Positions 2,848-26,193 of a stretch of DNA of 29,571 bases are shown piece by piece. The stretch spans positions 1 to 29,571 of the forward strand of contig CAZQWX010000063.1 in the NCBI GenBank assembly GCA_964597255.1, given 5' to 3'. Under the pieces are notes generated by a model, which made no database searches, was not told the origin of the DNA, and was given only the letters and a program-made list of their open reading frames with translations. Within the stretch, counting starts at the first letter, position 1, and every line of letters begins with the position of its first letter. The translations under genes and the position numbers were made by a program. The DNA comes from an uncultured Gammaproteobacteria bacterium. Its GTDB lineage: Bacteria; Patescibacteriota; Microgenomatia; JAMCZE01.

Positions 2848-2877
2848 ATTATATCGTAGCCTCGCTACACTTTGCAA
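2848..2877 (-). promoter_or_regulatory. Putative tuf promoter
   Basis: TTGCAA-18 bp-TATAAT immediately after the deformylase stop codon. Confidence 0.5.
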
Positions 2878-2885
2878 GGGGGAAA

Positions 2886-3491
2886 TTAAACTTCCTTAAG
2901 TATTTTTAGCTTTTCCCCAAAAACCTCCTCTTTTCCTTTTCTAATCAACCGCAACGACAATGGGACAGATTCGTCAAGACACAATTTTCCCATTAAATGC
3001 GAAATTTCATGTTGTAAGAGTCTGGCTGCGACGCCGTTCATTTTCTCTCTGATTTTCTTTCCATTGACATCCAGATATTCCACCATAATCCAATATGGCC
3101 TAACGATATCACCCATAACCAGTCCGAAACTTAGGCATAATTCACCCATCATGGCTTTTTCTTCTGATTCTTCAACTATTTTTGGATTAACATATACACT
3201 AAATTTTTCATTCAAAAATGTTACTATTATCTGTTTGCAAATCCCAACTTGGTTACCTGCTAGTCCACGACCATACCCAGTAATGGCTCTATAATCTTTT
3301 AGGGTAGTTTCCATGAGGTTACTCCATCGTTTTACTCTGCCAGTTTGAAAGTCCTCTTTGTTAATTTCATCACAATGGATTCGTAAAATTTTATCGCCGG
3401 CATAAACAAGTTGGGGAAATTTTTGAAGAATTAATTGAAAGTTCTTAACTTCGGAAATTAAACCAGAGTAATCTGTCTTTAATAGTTTCAT
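2886..3491 (-). CDS. def: Peptide deformylase-like protein with divergent motifs
   Basis: GRGLAGNQVG (motif 1), ELCLS (motif 2, canonical EGCLS) and QHEISHLMG (motif 3, canonical HExDH); ATGA overlap with the fusA stop. Confidence 0.85.
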   Translation of the reverse strand: MKLLKTDYSGLISEVKNFQLILQKFPQLVYAGDKILRIHCDEINKEDFQTGRVKRWSNLMETTLKDYRAITGYGRGLAGNQVGICKQIIVTFLNEKFSVYVNPKIVEESEEKAMMGELCLSFGLVMGDIVRPYWIMVEYLDVNGKKIREKMNGVAARLLQHEISHLMGKLCLDESVPLSLRLIRKGKEEVFGEKLKILKEV

Positions 3492-20864: not shown

Positions 20865-21129
20865 GTCTTTTGTGCAAAACACTCATGACCTCAGCGATGG
20901 CTTTTTTGGAATTACCTTTCTTGATTTCGTCGGCGACACAACTTTCCAGATGGTTGGCCATAACCTGATCTTCAGTTTGTTTAATTGCTTCGCGTACGGC
21001 CTGCATCTGGTGCAAAATGTCGATGCAATAAACATCATCCTTAACCATCTGTAACACTTTTTCCAAATGGCCAAGGGAAATCTGCAACCGGTGAATAATG
21101 GCTTCCTGGGTGTCTTTTGGTCGATACAT
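20857..21129 (-). CDS. csoR: CsoR/RcnR-family metal-sensing repressor
   Basis: RLQISLGHLEKV...CIDILHQMQAV...HLESCV (Cys-His-Cys ligands); heads the copA operon. Confidence 0.9.
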   Translation of the reverse strand: MYRPKDTQEAIIHRLQISLGHLEKVLQMVKDDVYCIDILHQMQAVREAIKQTEDQVMANHLESCVADEIKKGNSKKAIAEVMSVLHKRHG

Positions 21130-21136
21130 GGTGTTT

Positions 21137-21166
21137 ATCGTAATCCCTCCCGGGGGGATATGTCAA
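21137..21166 (-). promoter_or_regulatory. cop promoter with CsoR-type G/C-tract operator
   Basis: TTGACA-18 bp-TACGAT; the spacer holds ATCCC-CCCGGGA-GGGAT; the ATG is 7 nt after the -10 (leaderless). Confidence 0.75.
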
Positions 21167-21197
21167 GAGGAAGAAAAGTTCGATTTAAACCAGGGAG

Positions 21198-21986
21198 TCA
21201 AGGGAGAAAGTTGTGGTCGGATCTTGAACACCAGAAATTAAAAATGGCTAACCATTGGGCAAACGACAAATCAGTCGGTTTGGCATGAAGACTAAAATGA
21301 TTAGCATCGGCCAGTCGCTTCCATTGATTAAAAGTAAATATCTTCTTCAGACCAACTTTTAGATCCTTTTTCCAGGTGCCGAAAGCGAATTTGATGAAGT
21401 TCTTATAGAGCAGCTCCTGGTCAGGGGAAATCAGAGGGATTGTGCGCTTGGTAATCGTTAGTAGGACAATATCCACTTCTGGGGCTGGTTGGAAATCTGT
21501 CTGATTAAACTTCCAAATGAGACGAAAATCGAACCACGGCTTGGTCAAAAGCGAGGCTTGGGTTTCCCTGGGAAGACCGGCAAACTTTTCGGCGGCTTCT
21601 TGTTGAACCACCAGATAGGCAACTTCCGGGGGTCGAGAATAATAAAGCAGTTTATAGATGATGTCGGCGGTGAGGTGAAACGGCAGATTGGCAAAGACCT
21701 TGTAAGGCTGGTTTGGCAGAGAATATTGCCGGATGTCAGCCTGGCAGACGGCAACATTGGGATAGTTTCTGAGATTGCTGCGAAGCTGGCCGACCAGATT
21801 AGTGTCGACTTCCACAGCAATGACCCTGGCTCCGGTTTGAGCCAACTCGCGCGTGATGGTTCCAGTCCCCGCCCCAATATCAACGATTAGGTCGTTAGGG
21901 ACAAACTGAGCTTTGCCCACCAAGTGAGCCACCAGTTTGGGATCCCGGAAAAAGTTTTGCGACAACAATCTTCTTTGTAAATTCAT
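21198..21986 (-). CDS. Erm-like rRNA adenine N6-methyltransferase (Erm/KsgA family)
   Basis: SQNF, VDIGAGTG, VIAVEVD, ANLPF, F.PAPEVD motifs and an Erm-like C-terminus (IFT..Q..RL, LSFAQWLAIF); AAGGAGG before the ATG at 21986. Confidence 0.85.
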   Translation of the reverse strand: MNLQRRLLSQNFFRDPKLVAHLVGKAQFVPNDLIVDIGAGTGTITRELAQTGARVIAVEVDTNLVGQLRSNLRNYPNVAVCQADIRQYSLPNQPYKVFANLPFHLTADIIYKLLYYSRPPEVAYLVVQQEAAEKFAGLPRETQASLLTKPWFDFRLIWKFNQTDFQPAPEVDIVLLTITKRTIPLISPDQELLYKNFIKFAFGTWKKDLKVGLKKIFTFNQWKRLADANHFSLHAKPTDLSFAQWLAIFNFWCSRSDHNFLP

Positions 21987-22080
21987 AAGAACCCCTCCTT
22001 TCGGTCGGGAACCTTGCGCCCGAGCACTTACAGTGTAAACACCTGCGTGTTCGGGGCTAGATACACCTTCCTTTTTGCAC

Positions 22081-22109
22081 ACAAAAAAACCAGTCCTAGT
22101 GACTGGTTT
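22081..22109 (-). terminator. Attenuator terminator in the erm leader
   Basis: Minus strand reads AAACCAGTC-ACTAG-GACTGGTTT followed by further Ts (perfect 9-bp stem). Confidence 0.8.
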
Positions 22110-22177
22110 ACTGATTTATTAGCTATTTAGATTTGGATGCGAATTACCAACACAAAAACCAGCCGCTAGGCGGTTAC

Positions 22178-22216
22178 TTAGGCTTGTGGCCTATATGTGT
22201 CGATAACTTTCGTCAT
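22178..22216 (-). CDS. Putative erm leader peptide MTKVIDTYRPQA
   Basis: ATG 9 nt after TGcTATAAT; the stop abuts the first hairpin of the leader. Confidence 0.6.
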   Translation of the reverse strand: MTKVIDTYRPQA

Positions 22217-22225
22217 ACTTGGTGA

Positions 22226-22234
22226 ATTATAGCA
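22226..22234 (-). promoter_or_regulatory. Extended -10 promoter of the erm leader
   Basis: TGcTATAAT on the minus strand. Confidence 0.6.
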
Positions 22235-22279
22235 CAAAAGCTGCTCGAATTCATGTTCGCCTGTCTGTCGTTTTACCTA

Positions 22280-23095
22280 TTAAAACCACTTCTCAAAAAA
22301 TGACGCCAAATCCTTTGAAAGTTGTGGGCCGATTCCTATCCCCTGCTTCTTATCTCTAAATTTATGTGCAGTTTCGATCTGAACTGCGTTTATTTTATAT
22401 TTTGTCGCATAGTATCGGGTTGTAAATTCTGCGGCATATAAATCTTCTTTTTGGTGTGTGGCGCTTTTATCTCCAGGAACAAATACTTCATATCCTTTAT
22501 GTCTTAGGTATTCACCCATAGCAAGATCGATATCGCCATAGTAAATCGATGTTCTGTTACCGGTACCTAGAATCAGGTCGTATCCACCTTTGGGAGCATA
22601 ATCTGGTTGCTTGGCAAATCCATGTAAATCAATCAAAAGGCAACCTGCCTTGCCGTAACGATTAATTGATTCCTCCAACAACTGCCCGATTGTTCCATGA
22701 TACTGTCTATATTCAGGAGCGTAACGGGAATTTTCCAGAGCAAGTTGCGGTTTCTGACCCTTGTAGTAGCTTCTGGGGATTGGCCAACTTCGGTTCAGAT
22801 CCACCATACCCCTTGGAATATCTCCTTTAACTACACTTATAAATTCGCGGATGTTTAGCCGTTTAGAACCAAACAGAATATCTTTGGCAATAAGCCACAC
22901 TCCAGGATCACCACCAGTGACGCCTTTTCGTCGATCCCTTATTTTGTCTGGCCATTTATAATTTGGCATCCCGTCATGAGGTACTGTAATTACCACCCGA
23001 CTTGGCTTTTTTGCTTGCCAGACCTCAGTAAAGTTTATGTTGGTTACCCGATGGTGTTCAAAGTCAATAAAATTTTTAGCCATAGTGTCAAACAT
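22280..23095 (-). CDS. N-formylglutamate amidohydrolase-family protein
   Basis: VITVPHDG, VDLNR, YH, LLIDLHGF, DLILGTG and AVQIE motifs; GGGAGG 7 nt before the ATG. Confidence 0.78.
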   Translation of the reverse strand: MFDTMAKNFIDFEHHRVTNINFTEVWQAKKPSRVVITVPHDGMPNYKWPDKIRDRRKGVTGGDPGVWLIAKDILFGSKRLNIREFISVVKGDIPRGMVDLNRSWPIPRSYYKGQKPQLALENSRYAPEYRQYHGTIGQLLEESINRYGKAGCLLIDLHGFAKQPDYAPKGGYDLILGTGNRTSIYYGDIDLAMGEYLRHKGYEVFVPGDKSATHQKEDLYAAEFTTRYYATKYKINAVQIETAHKFRDKKQGIGIGPQLSKDLASFFEKWF

Positions 23096-23096
23096 T

Positions 23097-23119
23097 AAAA
23101 AACCTCCCGGTTGGGAGGC
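23097..23119 (-). terminator. Terminator/SD-sequestering hairpin directly before the amidohydrolase ATG
   Basis: Minus strand reads GCCTCCC-AACC-GGGAGG-TTTTTT. Confidence 0.72.
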
Positions 23120-23144
23120 ATAGAGTCAATTGTGATTATTTATT

Positions 23145-23225
23145 TCAGGAAATAATAGCCTCCCAACGAACATCGGGAGATTTGGCAGGGGAATAGTTGT
23201 TGTATACGTCAACTCTGGAATTCAT
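23145..23225 (-). CDS. Putative leader peptide MNSRVDVYNNYSPAKSPDVRWEAIIS
   Basis: ATG 8 nt after TATAAT; its 3' codons contain the 10-nt complement of the terminator 5' arm. Confidence 0.55.
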   Translation of the reverse strand: MNSRVDVYNNYSPAKSPDVRWEAIIS

Positions 23226-23233
23226 GTTTTGCG

Positions 23234-23262
23234 ATTATACTTTATTGAGACTATTTTGTCCA
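23234..23262 (-). promoter_or_regulatory. Sigma70-type promoter for the amidohydrolase leader
   Basis: TGGACA-17 bp-TATAAT. Confidence 0.7.
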
Positions 23263-23342
23263 AAAAAATATTTTGTGTACAGAAAATTTGGCCCCAGTCA
23301 AAGAACCATACATGGAATTAGATTAGCTTTCATGTATGCATA

Positions 23343-24560
23343 TCATTCTGCCAGTATTGTCTCGACGATTTCCCTACTTAGCACCATGTTCTTGGTAGCG
23401 CCTTGGTCAAGTTTCGTTACCAAGTTTTTTGTGATGAATGGCAAGGAAAATAATAGCATTGCGGCCATGAGCGTTGAGACGGGATCGAGGGAGAGATGGA
23501 GAAATTCGTCGACACTGTGGGCATAGGTGCCGCGACGAAAAGTGGCATTAATAGCAATCGTGTATTTTTCTCCCAAACTGGCACCACGGCGGATCGCGCC
23601 GGTGACTTCGGTGGTCATTTGGTGACTTTCCACGCCATTTTTGGAAGTCAACGCTTTTCGTGGCACATCACCCAAAGCTGTTTTGATCATCATCTCGGGC
23701 ATATTCGGGCCGGCCAGACTGGCATTGATGGTCTCCCCGATTCTGGGATTACCTTCGAGGATAAATGACGTGCCGCTAGACTTTTCTCGGATGAAATCAA
23801 GCATCATTGGGCCGGTCCAATTGAGAGCTTTGCCGAGCTTCTCAGCATAGGATCTAATATCGTCGTCATTTTGACTTTGCCGATGGCTAGCGCCACCACC
23901 AAAACCAGTCGACAGGGCAAGATACTGGTGGGAGGCAATCAGCTTGCCCCGCACAAAAATTGTTTGGATAGTAAGTTGTTGGCCGACAACTTCTTCCTGA
24001 ACAATTAAGTCTGATTCATTTCGGAAACGGTGTATAGCCCGTTGACGATCAGCATCAGTCGCGATCCGGGCAACGCCAGAGCTGCTGGTGCCATAGGGTG
24101 TTTTCACATAGGTTGGTTTGGTCAGAGAAAGGGTTGTTAGCCCAGAAGCACTTTTTAGAAAAGTCATTTTGGGGACGGGTATACCCAATGATTTTGCCTT
24201 GGTCAAACAAAGTTGCTTGCTCATAATGGTGTTAAAAACTTCTGCAGAGCCTAAAAGTATGTGAGTGTATTGTTGGAGCTCGTGTTGATACTTAGCCAAA
24301 AATAGGCCCTCTTCGTGGATTGGCAAAATGACATCATATTTTTCCTGTTTCAGTAGATGTAATAAGAACTCAAGATAGGCATTTATATCGCGGTTTAGTC
24401 GTGGGCTTTGGAAAAACTGTGAACAATGGCGGTGAAATCTGGCCCAGCAAAAATTATTAGAATCGCAAACATGAACTTCATATTTTGCGGGGTCAAGAAT
24501 AGTTAAGGCCTGGACTGTGGCCGGGGTGGAACCATTAAGGATCAGAATCTTTAGCCGCAT
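23343..24560 (-). CDS. ATP-grasp domain protein
   Basis: YDVILPIHEE, YVKTPYGTSSSGV, LIVQEEVVG and LDFI...ILEGNPR motifs; start at 24560 or 24566. Confidence 0.82.
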   Translation of the reverse strand: MRLKILILNGSTPATVQALTILDPAKYEVHVCDSNNFCWARFHRHCSQFFQSPRLNRDINAYLEFLLHLLKQEKYDVILPIHEEGLFLAKYQHELQQYTHILLGSAEVFNTIMSKQLCLTKAKSLGIPVPKMTFLKSASGLTTLSLTKPTYVKTPYGTSSSGVARIATDADRQRAIHRFRNESDLIVQEEVVGQQLTIQTIFVRGKLIASHQYLALSTGFGGGASHRQSQNDDDIRSYAEKLGKALNWTGPMMLDFIREKSSGTSFILEGNPRIGETINASLAGPNMPEMMIKTALGDVPRKALTSKNGVESHQMTTEVTGAIRRGASLGEKYTIAINATFRRGTYAHSVDEFLHLSLDPVSTLMAAMLLFSLPFITKNLVTKLDQGATKNMVLSREIVETILAE

Positions 24561-24566
24561 GGCCAT

Positions 24567-24580
24567 TAGATTATAATCTA
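24567..24580. promoter_or_regulatory. Palindromic bidirectional -10 element TAGATTATAATCTA
   Basis: Perfect 14-bp palindrome giving TATAAT on both strands, each 9 nt from an ATG (24587 and 24560). Confidence 0.65.
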
Positions 24581-24586
24581 GTTGTC

Positions 24587-25270
24587 ATGAGGCGATTAAT
24601 CAGAAGGGTTAAACCGCTGCTTGCCATTGGCATCCCACTTCTTATTCTGGTGGCGGTTGGGGTTGTTCTCCAAGTGGTAGTGGTAGCACAACCGTTATTA
24701 ATCGCCCACTGGCTGCAGTCTTTTGGACCAGCCTTATTAGTTATCTACTTCCTAATTCAATCGGTGGGGATTATCTTCCCACCCATTCCTGGTGGGATTT
24801 TTCAACTGGCGTTGATCGCCATTTTTGGCCCACTGAAGGGATTTTTGCTCATCTATTTAACGGTCACGCCATTGTATTGTGTCAATTTCCTGTTGGCCAA
24901 GAGATATGGCCGGCCGTTTGTCACCCGAATGATTGGAGAAAAAAGCATGAGGAAGGTCGATGACTATGCCAAAGATGCCGGGCTGGGAGGATTGATCATG
25001 TTGAAATTATTCCAGGACAGGTATGTTGACTATATTTCTTACGGCTTGGGTTTAACTTTGATCAGTTTTAAAAACTTTTTCTGGGTTAACCTTTTGGCAG
25101 AAATTCCCCGAGATATTGTGGCTTATTTCATCTTCAAAAATGGGCCAAACTTTACCGTCTCCATCATCTTGATGGAAGTCTTTGCCGGAGGTTTGACGGT
25201 GTTGTATATTTTGCACCACCATTGGCAACACAGGAGGAAATTAGCAAGTCAGAAAAGTAGAGAAAGTTAG
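24587..25270 (+). CDS. TVP38/TMEM64 (DedA/VTT domain) membrane protein
   Basis: IIFPPIPG, FGPLKG, FLLAKRYGRP, DYISYGLGLT and F...N motifs; hydrophobic. Confidence 0.85.
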   Translation: MRRLIRRVKPLLAIGIPLLILVAVGVVLQVVVVAQPLLIAHWLQSFGPALLVIYFLIQSVGIIFPPIPGGIFQLALIAIFGPLKGFLLIYLTVTPLYCVNFLLAKRYGRPFVTRMIGEKSMRKVDDYAKDAGLGGLIMLKLFQDRYVDYISYGLGLTLISFKNFFWVNLLAEIPRDIVAYFIFKNGPNFTVSIILMEVFAGGLTVLYILHHHWQHRRKLASQKSRES

Positions 25271-26193
25271 AGGTATTTGGCCACGTTAGCGTTGTGCTGG
25301 TCGAGGGTTTGAGCATAGTGCATCTGGCCATCTTTGCCCGTGAGGTAATAGAGATAGTTGGTTTGGGTGGGATGGAGAACGGCGTCGATGGATGACAGGC
25401 CGGGATTGCAGATCGGGCCAGGTGGCAGGCCAGCATGAATATAGGTGTTGTAGGGCGAGGCGATTTTCAGATCATCCAAGGTGAGATTTTTCTTCCACCA
25501 GCCGTCTTGGGTGGTGTAGCCAATGGCATATTGGACCGTGGCGTCGACATCTAGGCCCATACCGGCATTAAGCCGATTAAGAAAAACACTGGCCACGATT
25601 GGCCGGTCGGCAGCGTCTTTGGCTTCGCGCTCGACCATGGAAGCCAAGATGAGAGTTTGGTTGTCGATGGCCAGATCGGAAGTTTTGGTGGTGAAGTTTT
25701 TTAGCATCAGATCGTGAATACTGGCAACGGTTGACAGCTTGGGCACCAGATAGGTGTCGGGGAAGAGCCGGCCCTCATCGGCACTCCAGCTGGCACTGGT
25801 GGTGTCAAAACCTTGGGTTTTGAGATAGTCCAGAATTTGGGTGGCCCGCCAACCTTCGGGGATGGTGATCCAAACGTCTTCGGTGCCAAAAGTCAGTTTC
25901 GAAGCTACCTCTTGGGCGGACATGGCTGGCGACAATTGGAAGCTGCCAGCTTGGAGTTTGGTGTCGGTGTGAAGAACCAAACGGACGAGAACAAAGAACG
26001 ATACCGGGTCACGAATCAAGCCTTGATCGCCGAGATTTTTGGCAATGGCGCGAACGTCTTCGCCAGAACTGACCGTAAAACTGCGGGTTTTTGTGTCTTG
26101 GGGATTAACCGGGGAAGTGGCAAAGTTCCACCACATGACCCCCGCAATAGCGACCACCAAGGCAACACCAAAAGCGAGAAGTAATTTTTTCAA
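25267..26193 (-). CDS. mltG: Endolytic transglycosylase MltG
   Basis: N-terminal TM helix; ITIPEGW, EGRLFPDTY, ASMVEREA, SPYNTY, GLPPGPICNPG and YLYYL motifs; TTG start. Confidence 0.95.
   Translation of the reverse strand: MKKLLLAFGVALVVAIAGVMWWNFATSPVNPQDTKTRSFTVSSGEDVRAIAKNLGDQGLIRDPVSFFVLVRLVLHTDTKLQAGSFQLSPAMSAQEVASKLTFGTEDVWITIPEGWRATQILDYLKTQGFDTTSASWSADEGRLFPDTYLVPKLSTVASIHDLMLKNFTTKTSDLAIDNQTLILASMVEREAKDAADRPIVASVFLNRLNAGMGLDVDATVQYAIGYTTQDGWWKKNLTLDDLKIASPYNTYIHAGLPPGPICNPGLSSIDAVLHPTQTNYLYYLTGKDGQMHYAQTLDQHNANVAKYL

Follow-up and report, generated by a model that had tools for sequence, protein, structure and literature searches.

The locus examined here raises the question of how a gene for an enzyme related to N-formylglutamate amidohydrolases (the FGase family, PF05013) is controlled in a member of the candidate phyla radiation (CPR; Patescibacteria), a group whose genomes are tiny and encode few regulators that can be recognised, and for which experimental genetics barely exists. 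The window, meaning the whole 29,571-nucleotide (nt) stretch of DNA that was analysed (contig CAZQWX010000063.1), comes from a genome of 864 kb that is 86% complete and belongs to a class of small genomes (0.5–2.0 Mb). Among sequencing runs, this DNA was found in three DNA runs of one study of mine drainage, one of which may be its source, and in no RNA run. The region in question lies on the minus strand and is flanked by an ATP-grasp gene (coordinates 23343–24566) and the FGase-like gene (coordinates 22280–23095). An initial annotation had proposed that it contains a ribosome-operated attenuator, in which 1:2 and 3:4 pairings alternate with a 2:3 pairing and termination is coupled with occlusion of the Shine-Dalgarno (SD) sequence. 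This proposal is supported by conservation, covariation and geometry, which make the attenuator mechanism, taken by itself, very probable. Judged from the sequences compiled here, the element can be classed as a probably leaderless variant of the trp-type attenuator whose leader peptide is conserved.

The promoter, the 26-codon upstream open reading frame (uORF), the complementary segments S2 and S3, the terminator containing the SD sequence, the U6 tract and the ATG that had been described for this region were all found on the minus strand, at the following positions in the window.

23257–23262, minus strand: -35 box TGGACA, from a scan for promoter-like sites
23234–23239, minus strand: -10 box TATAAT, 8 nt 5' of the uORF ATG, a leaderless arrangement
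23145–23225, minus strand: leader open reading frame (the uORF), 26 codons plus stop, MNSRVDVYNNYSPAKSPDVRWEAIIS, with the ATG at 23225 and a TGA stop ending at 23145
23187–23225, minus strand: conserved peptide core, codons 1–13, M-N-S-R-V-D-V-Y-N-N-Y-S-P, from a comparison of 17 leaders
23175–23192, minus strand: predicted sensing window, codons 12–17 (S-P-A-K-S-P), from the ribosome-mask scan
23172–23181, minus strand: segment 1 (S1), AUCUCCCGAU, the putative anti-antiterminator, nt 45–54 of the uORF, forming a 9-pair hairpin with S2
23157–23168, minus strand: segment 2 (S2), the putative antiterminator strand inside the uORF, with its core GUUGGGAGGC at 23167–23158
23110–23119, minus strand: segment 3 (S3), GCCUCCCAAC, terminator 5' arm plus loop bases, a perfect 10-nt complement of S2
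23102–23109, minus strand: segment 4 (S4), CGGGAGGU, terminator 3' arm and SD sequence of the FGase-like gene, from the terminator scan
23097–23102, minus strand: U6 tract, terminator tail and spacer between the SD sequence and the ATG, followed by one A and then the ATG at 23095
22280–23095, minus strand: the regulated FGase-family (PF05013) amidohydrolase gene, encoding 271 amino acids (aa), from a Pfam match

The promoter TGGACA-17-TATAAT (23262–23234) matches the consensus at 11 of 12 positions and was the top-scoring site in the 4.5 kb scanned (21000–25500). As the uORF lacks an SD sequence and its ATG is located 8 nt past the -10 box, we infer that ribosomes probably initiate on it as on a leaderless mRNA. 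The 3:4 hairpin (23119–23102), in which the arms GCCUCCC and GGGAGGU enclose the loop AACC, is GC-rich with 7 pairs, and the same hairpin was reported by the terminator scan. Cofolding energies, calculated as had been suggested, are -12.5 kcal/mol for both the 1:2 duplex and the 3:4 hairpin and -21.2 kcal/mol for the 2:3 duplex, which consists of 10 perfect base pairs. S1 had been described only as CTCCC, and its pairing with S2 was found to be stronger, with AUCUCCCGAU contributing to the 9-pair hairpin. An intrinsic terminator between the uORF and the gene, a mutually exclusive 2:3 antiterminator and a 1:2 pairing placed where a stalled ribosome would mask it, three features of trp-type attenuators, are all present. 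The leader folds with a z-score of -3.07, only 1 of 200 shuffled sequences being as stable, and a perfect 10-nt inverted repeat arose in 26 of 2000 dinucleotide shuffles (1.3%). A stronger argument than these chance controls is that the uORF and the four segments appear to have been kept in 16 other loci.

In the mechanism proposed, the transcript would start at the uORF ATG or only a few bases away from it, giving a leaderless mRNA. In the OFF state, a ribosome that passes to codon 18 or further, or to the stop, would mask S2, and the GC-rich S3:S4 hairpin together with U6 would halt transcription 1–7 nt before the FGase-like ATG, with the SD sequence buried too. In the ON state, a ribosome stalled with its A site around codons 12–17 (S-P-A-K-S-P) would mask S1 and leave S2 free to pair with S3 and the terminator loop, in which case no terminator would form, the SD sequence would be free and the gene would be expressed. 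The signal would be insufficient charging of tRNA-Ser, reflecting serine or one-carbon status, and the FGase-like enzyme would be a salvage amidohydrolase induced by starvation. This combination of a leaderless uORF attenuator, a family of CPR leaders and a serine signal is regarded as the best explanation of the locus, with moderate confidence in the whole. Of its components, the anatomy of the sequence, its conservation and covariation and the thermodynamic plausibility of the alternative folds are shown directly.

The leader peptide family and the covarying switch

Further members of the leader family were sought with a degenerate DNA pattern of the first ten or thirteen leader codons, using the reversed pattern as a control. 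The pattern matched 5 of 401 genomes in the class of genome G000 and 11 of 121 in the GTDB family of G299, with the reversed control at 0 in both sets. No match was found in 400 further genomes of the phylum (reversed control 0), and in the GTDB family of G315 no member besides G315 itself was detected. In all, 17 leaders were compiled from the window and 16 further loci, two of which (L002 and L061) have orthologous 26-codon uORFs, the other 14 having related ones. The initial annotation had proposed to check whether uORF and structure are conserved upstream of homologues; they appear to be, in these 16 loci.

Locus L002 is from a sister genus and carries an orthologous FGase gene whose product is 82% identical. 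It retains the promoter, a 26-codon uORF (MSSRVDVYNNYSPNKSSDVCWGAFIS) and all four segments, both flanking genes are different, and its base changes (C to U in S1 and S3, A to G in S2) keep the pairing. L061 (FGase 73% identical) has a 26-codon uORF with a GTG start (MNSRVDFYNNYSPARTFQCGWGARLS) in the same layout, and the leader in L065 (FGase 54% identical) is MNSRVDVYNNFSPFINF.

Peptides of the family start with M-N-S-R-V-D-V-[Y/N]-N-N-[Y/F]-S-P. R4, V5, N9, N10, S12 and P13 are invariant in 17/17 leaders, M1, N2, S3, D6 and V7 are nearly so, positions 8 and 11 alternate between Y and N and between Y and F, respectively, and the residues from position 14 on are variable. This 13-residue start spans three GTDB families and unrelated cargo genes. 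Each of the invariant residues is encoded by 2–4 synonymous codons, the invariant Arg by AGA in ten leaders and CGA in seven, and the Ser3 codons include both TCN and AGY, indicating that the peptide rather than the RNA sequence is under selection. A -10-like hexamer is present 3–9 nt before the start codon in 12 of the 17 uORFs, 11 of which have no SD-like motif, and a longer 5' untranslated region carrying an SD-like motif precedes the uORF in L081 and L083. As the frame is served by a leaderless start or by an SD sequence alike, this arrangement also argues for translation of the uORF, and conservation of the peptide with synonymous changes across 17 loci argues strongly for it.

Thirteen homologous leaders were used to examine the switch. 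In these, the terminator is CCUCCC, a loop and GGGAGG, followed by U4–U7 and then ATG or GTG, and as GGGAGG, the U-run and the start codon are all kept, the 3' arm of the terminator is always the SD sequence. S2 is located at nt 58–70 from the uORF start in every member, with its GGG at nt 61–66 in the 13 analysed, while the position of the uORF stop ranges from nt 52 to nt 88, suggesting that the conserved quantity is the distance from the peptide to S2. All three family features, namely the 13-residue start, S2 at nt 58–70 and a CCUCCC/GGGAGG terminator with the SD sequence as its 3' arm, are found in the window leader.

The bases located 5' of the S2 GGG pair with bases of the terminator loop, which carry no 3:4 constraint. 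These S2-flank/loop pairs include GUU/AAC, GC/GC, GCC/GGC, GCU/AGC, UUU/AAA, GAGC/GCUC and GGUU/AACC. Contiguous pairs over three flank positions were counted in a core-anchored pair analysis of the 13 leaders; a MAFFT alignment mis-registers S2 and S3 in several rows and was not used for counting. Pairing was found at 33 of 39 flank positions versus 19.75 ± 2.9 with partners shuffled, and 0 of 20,000 shuffles reached 33, a figure that is not a strict probability because the sequences are related. U-A, C-G, G-C and A-U are all among the covarying pair types, and this variety provides clear comparative support for the predicted antiterminator. Loss of S2/S3 complementarity from homologous leaders had been named at the outset as refuting evidence; the complementarity is kept, with covariation. 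In 10 of the 13 homologues, the unconstrained minimum free energy (MFE) structure is 1:2 plus 3:4.

In several family members (L061, coordinates 2985–3003; L071, coordinates 1638–1682; L084, coordinates 1629–1645), the SD sequence in S4 serves a mini-ORF of 2–4 codons (M-C-K-stop, M-A-stop or an overlapping ATGA) that ends at or shortly 5' of the true gene start, which suggests translational coupling or re-initiation. The counterpart of the mini-ORF ATG in the window is joined in frame to the FGase-like gene, as MFDT-M. A further member, MNCRVGVYNNYSPQLN in genome G354 (L073, coordinates 1501–1800), has no recognisable GGGAGG/CCUCCC switch and no clear gene before the contig end, and this copy may be decaying.

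Predicted stall site, cargo genes and candidate signal

To locate the stall that would induce expression, a ribosome footprint from -15 to +11 relative to the A-site nucleotide was masked codon by codon and the probability of the terminator stem was computed. In six loci (L002, L071, L076, L081, L083 and L085), this probability stays at ~1 when no ribosome is placed or when it is still early in the uORF, drops to <0.2 for A-site positions at codons 12–17 and is back at ~1 after them. The corresponding values for the window are 0.9 (S12/P13), 0.12–0.14 (K15/S16) and 0.98 (D18 through to the stop), such that a mask with the A site at codons ~14–17 (A-K-S-P) abolishes the terminator, versus codons 12–17 in homologues. 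As the scan dips there, the inducing stall site is predicted to be the end of the conserved block plus the few codons after it. The earlier proposal that stalling near YNNYSPAK is inducing agrees with this modelled dip at codons 12–17.

The starvation signal suggested with it, asparagine or tyrosine, is a poor geometric fit. Classical attenuation sensed through the Y-N-N-Y codons would account for the invariance of N9 and N10 and for the restriction of position 8 to Y or N and of position 11 to Y or F. However, R4, V5 and D6 are conserved equally, the cargo of the family belongs to the metabolism of serine and of neither asparagine nor tyrosine, and with the A site at codons 8–10 the footprint falls short of S1. 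Placing the A site at N9 or N10 leaves the terminator as it was in the window and in 9 of 13 homologues, and lowers its probability in L061, L081, L083 and L085. Sensing of asparagine or tyrosine is thus very unlikely.

Serine-pathway genes are the most frequent cargo, being found behind 7 of the 17 leaders. A fusion of a serB-like HAD phosphatase with a phosphoglycerate dehydrogenase follows five leaders, and a SerB-like HAD gene alone follows two. An FGase-like gene is located behind the leader in four lineages, and the other cargo consists of one Vut_1 transporter gene, one gene for a Methyltransf_28 protein and four unknown or truncated genes. In the complete locus L086, the operon order is the serB/serA fusion (NF008759, 605 bits versus a cut-off of 404), a SerC-like aminotransferase gene and glyA (NF000586, 531 bits versus 335). 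As the serine pathway is the most frequent cargo of the family, the signal is most likely a shortage of charged tRNA-Ser.

Serine codons account for 22 of 41 codons (54%) at positions 12–18 of the serine-pathway leaders, 15 of 39 in other leaders and 7 of 27 in FGase leaders, and have a frequency of 6.5% in long ORFs of the window's genome. The serine-pathway leaders are therefore Ser-rich exactly at the positions where a stalled ribosome would block termination and, from their sequences, look like classical serine attenuators. The Ser12 codon is TCN in 17/17 leaders, and in Bacillus subtilis it is at TCN codons that ribosomes slow down when serine runs short (PMC3862929). The serine signal taken alone is plausible, but falls slightly short of being evenly balanced.

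G000 and its sister G014 (each ~86% complete) both have glyA; neither a SerB scoring above the cut-off nor a serB/serA fusion was found in them. Conversely, no FGase was found in a small sample of five genomes in which the leader drives the serB/serA or SerB-like HAD gene. This distribution, small as the sample is, would fit with the hydrolase taking the place of biosynthesis in the response to one shared signal. In G000 (contigs C52, C101, C46 and C91), glyA is split across contig ends, and there are two stand-alone 2-hydroxyacid dehydrogenase genes, one of them behind a class II aldolase-like gene. The possibility that the FGase releases formate for the one-carbon pool was considered and is unsupported, as formate-tetrahydrofolate ligase was not found in G000 or G014.

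The FGase-like protein matches PF05013 with 36.8 bits versus a cut-off of 28.9, and no NCBIfam model matches it. It has 51 homologues besides itself in a large protein collection, those with a named source being nearly all from CPR bacteria, and the H-D, D-x-H-G and E motifs are kept without exception in 18 CPR homologues. An AlphaFold model (mean predicted local distance difference test, pLDDT, of 80.8) has its best fold matches to the N-formylglutamate amidohydrolase 2q7s and HutG (TM-score 0.53–0.59, 18% identity), followed by poly-gamma-glutamate hydrolases, succinylglutamate desuccinylase and M14 carboxypeptidases. Like HutG (PF05013, 2q7s) in Pfam family and fold, the protein differs from it in sequence, with the 18% identity just given, and in lacking a hut context. 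The model and motifs suggest that it is probably an active metal-dependent amidohydrolase with a substrate of the N-acyl or gamma-glutamyl amino acid type. The initial annotation knew of no attenuator for N-formylglutamate amidohydrolase-like enzymes, and none was found in the literature searched here. The ATP-grasp gene (23343–24566, minus strand; PF02655, PRK06849-like but below the cut-off) was considered as a conserved partner and rejected, being absent from every other FGase locus fetched.

A second, unrelated leader, M-L-x6-[T/I]-W-S-[G/S]-F (13–25 codons), is found together with a terminator at 18 of 31 more distant FGase loci, whose FGase homologues share 35–45% identity (L007–L039, for example L016, coordinates 2850–3000, L017 and L028). 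In five such genomes, no copy of this pattern was found other than the one before the FGase gene. As genes located 3' of the FGase gene are mostly absent or far away, no operon context can be drawn for these loci.

Evidence against the proposed serine attenuator and alternative explanations

Several observations weigh against the explanation preferred here. The first concerns the OFF state in the window. S1 is also able to pair with S4, and the ribosome-free MFE structure of the window (-34.85 kcal/mol) makes that pairing, forming a 1:4 helix around 2:3 in which the probability of the terminator is 0.0, unlike most homologues. In this fold (23102–23181), the terminator is gone and the SD sequence is buried again. 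As the ribosome-free fold contains no terminator, the OFF state of the window would need coupled translation or kinetic folding.

That the equilibrium fold of the window is ON without a ribosome, and that the terminator hairpin and inverted repeat exist irrespective of translation, could also point to a leader that works without translation, either as a simple terminator for the ATP-grasp gene located 5' of it or as a riboswitch or protein-binding leader, with a fortuitous uORF. However, the pattern of synonymous substitutions is that of selection on a peptide, the leader has its own near-consensus promoter, and the ATP-grasp gene is missing from all other leader-bearing loci. In addition, a permissive Rfam scan of 21800–23500 revealed nothing near threshold, the best match being Phe_leader with 17.6 bits versus a gathering threshold of 55 (E = 8.8). 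A translation-free leader is accordingly considered extremely improbable.

The second group of observations concerns serine. FGase leaders are only weakly Ser-enriched: codons 12–17 include just Ser12 and Ser16 in the window leader, and Ser12 alone in L061 and L065. The serine signal is therefore much less secure for FGase leaders than for those of the serine operons. Moreover, codon starvation would not account for residues 1–13 being so strictly conserved. Both points would be accommodated if the same RNA switch were operated by the conserved nascent peptide itself, with the 13 residues acting as the sensor. As with TnaC or SpeFL, a small molecule or a state of the cell would then bring about ribosome arrest, here at Ser12-Pro13. 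Candidate signals would be serine, glycine or a folate-related metabolite rather than a shortage of a single charged tRNA. Residues 1–13 are conserved over three GTDB families and unrelated cargo and are followed by a variable tail, the conserved block stops exactly at the required stall site with Pro last, and FGase-linked leaders retain the block without the Ser run. On the other side, the Ser runs of the serine-pathway leaders are what plain codon sensing predicts, and the sequence by itself suggests no ligand. To our knowledge, the leader peptide resembles none of the arrest peptides SecM, TnaC, SpeFL, ErmBL/CL and MifM, which also counts against arrest. An arrest peptide is therefore possible but unlikely, and the codon-sensing attenuator responding to serine is preferred.

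The third observation concerns the neighbouring gene. Downstream of the FGase-like gene in the window is a gene for an Erm-class methyltransferase (NF000499, 229 bits versus a cut-off of 212), and a second, KsgA-like RrnaAD gene is located elsewhere in the window's genome. In L065 (coordinates 1303–2184), the FGase gene is followed 10 nt on by an Erm-like gene (210 bits, just below the cut-off), forming one operon behind the MNSRVDVYNNFSP leader, such that a family leader drives an operon ending in an Erm-like gene. The Erm gene in the window has a leader region of its own, at the following position.

21987–22234, minus strand: Erm leader region, comprising an extended -10 promoter, the 12-codon uORF MTKVIDTYRPQA, which is near-leaderless, and two hairpins resembling terminators

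The initial annotation had suggested a drug- or stress-responsive hydrolase from this neighbourhood. An antibiotic-inducible attenuator of the erm/cat type, in which a drug-stalled ribosome induces a drug-modifying amidohydrolase, would be in keeping with the SD sequence sequestered in a hairpin as in erm leaders, with the Erm-class methyltransferase directly downstream and with the arrangement of leader, FGase and Erm-like gene in L065. However, the erm gene in the window has its own promoter, uORF and terminators, and Erm adjoins FGase in only 2 of ~50 FGase loci, the window and L065. The family leader precedes serB/serA-serC-glyA and other genes unrelated to resistance, the cargo being of the serine pathway in 7 of 17 cases and including the Vut_1 transporter and the methyltransferase, and a different leader peptide is present in 18 of 31 more distant FGase loci. 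As two unrelated leader peptides precede FGase in different lineages, control by translation or amino acid status is indicated rather than drug induction. A drug-responsive hydrolase is thus unsupported and quite improbable, which removes a tempting annotation of the enzyme as a resistance determinant beside erm.

Implications and comparison with known systems

A switch common to serine-synthesis operons, a transporter gene and an amidohydrolase gene suggests metabolic regulation through the ribosome in CPR bacteria, in which the leader sequence alone would group genes into a regulon. As the 3' arm of the terminator is the SD sequence of the regulated gene, transcription and translation would be gated by one hairpin. 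The CPR FGase-like family gains a functional context, amino acid or one-carbon salvage under starvation, and the conserved 13-residue peptide is a concrete, short candidate for an arrest or sensor peptide that is open to cell-free study without culture. A bolder proposal is that the 13-residue start is a new CPR arrest peptide that makes the ribosome a sensor of serine, glycine or one-carbon status, that together with the M-x8-W-S-G/S-F leader it defines 'ribulons' of salvage genes, and that the FGase-like protein is the salvage amidohydrolase of that regulon; this is speculative and rather doubtful. In the literature searched, neither a paper on leader peptides or attenuation in Patescibacteria nor an account of a serine leader-peptide attenuator was found. 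Serine genes in Paenibacillus are under T-box control (PMC8002221).

The trpL, hisL, pheL, thrL and leuL attenuators of enterobacteria are alike in having a short ORF, probably translated in the CPR leader too, 1:2 and 3:4 pairing versus 2:3 pairing, an intrinsic terminator and, as proposed here, a decision made by the position of the ribosome. Regulatory codons in the sensing region are a further likeness, seen here in the serine-pathway members. Unlike them, the CPR leader has a probably leaderless uORF with a conserved 13-residue start, uses the 3' arm of its terminator as the SD sequence of the regulated gene, shows no similarity to them in sequence or covariance model and, in the window, has a hydrolase rather than a biosynthetic operon as its cargo; no described serine specificity was found for the known attenuators.

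The ermC, ermB and catA86 leaders share with the CPR leader a leader peptide, an SD sequence in a 3:4 hairpin and, as predicted here, release by a ribosome stalled early. They differ in that the CPR cargo is mainly of the serine pathway and not resistance, and that the CPR leader has no recognised arrest motif but has a U-tract terminator. TnaC and SpeFL likewise have a conserved nascent peptide ending near proline and exert downstream control by stalling, as is proposed for the CPR leader, but act via Rho or ribosome queuing and not through a 2:3 antiterminator.

The closest experimental precedent for a leaderless uORF that senses an amino acid is the 'Cys ribulon' of mycobacteria, which consists of polycysteine-encoding leaderless short ORFs (bioRxiv 10.1101/834739). 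The two systems are probably alike in having a leaderless sensory uORF, and both use one device at several unlinked loci. The amino acid and the phylum are different, and the mycobacterial mechanism has been described as translational, whereas the CPR leaders add a U-tract terminator and share a non-repetitive peptide, not merely a run of codons.

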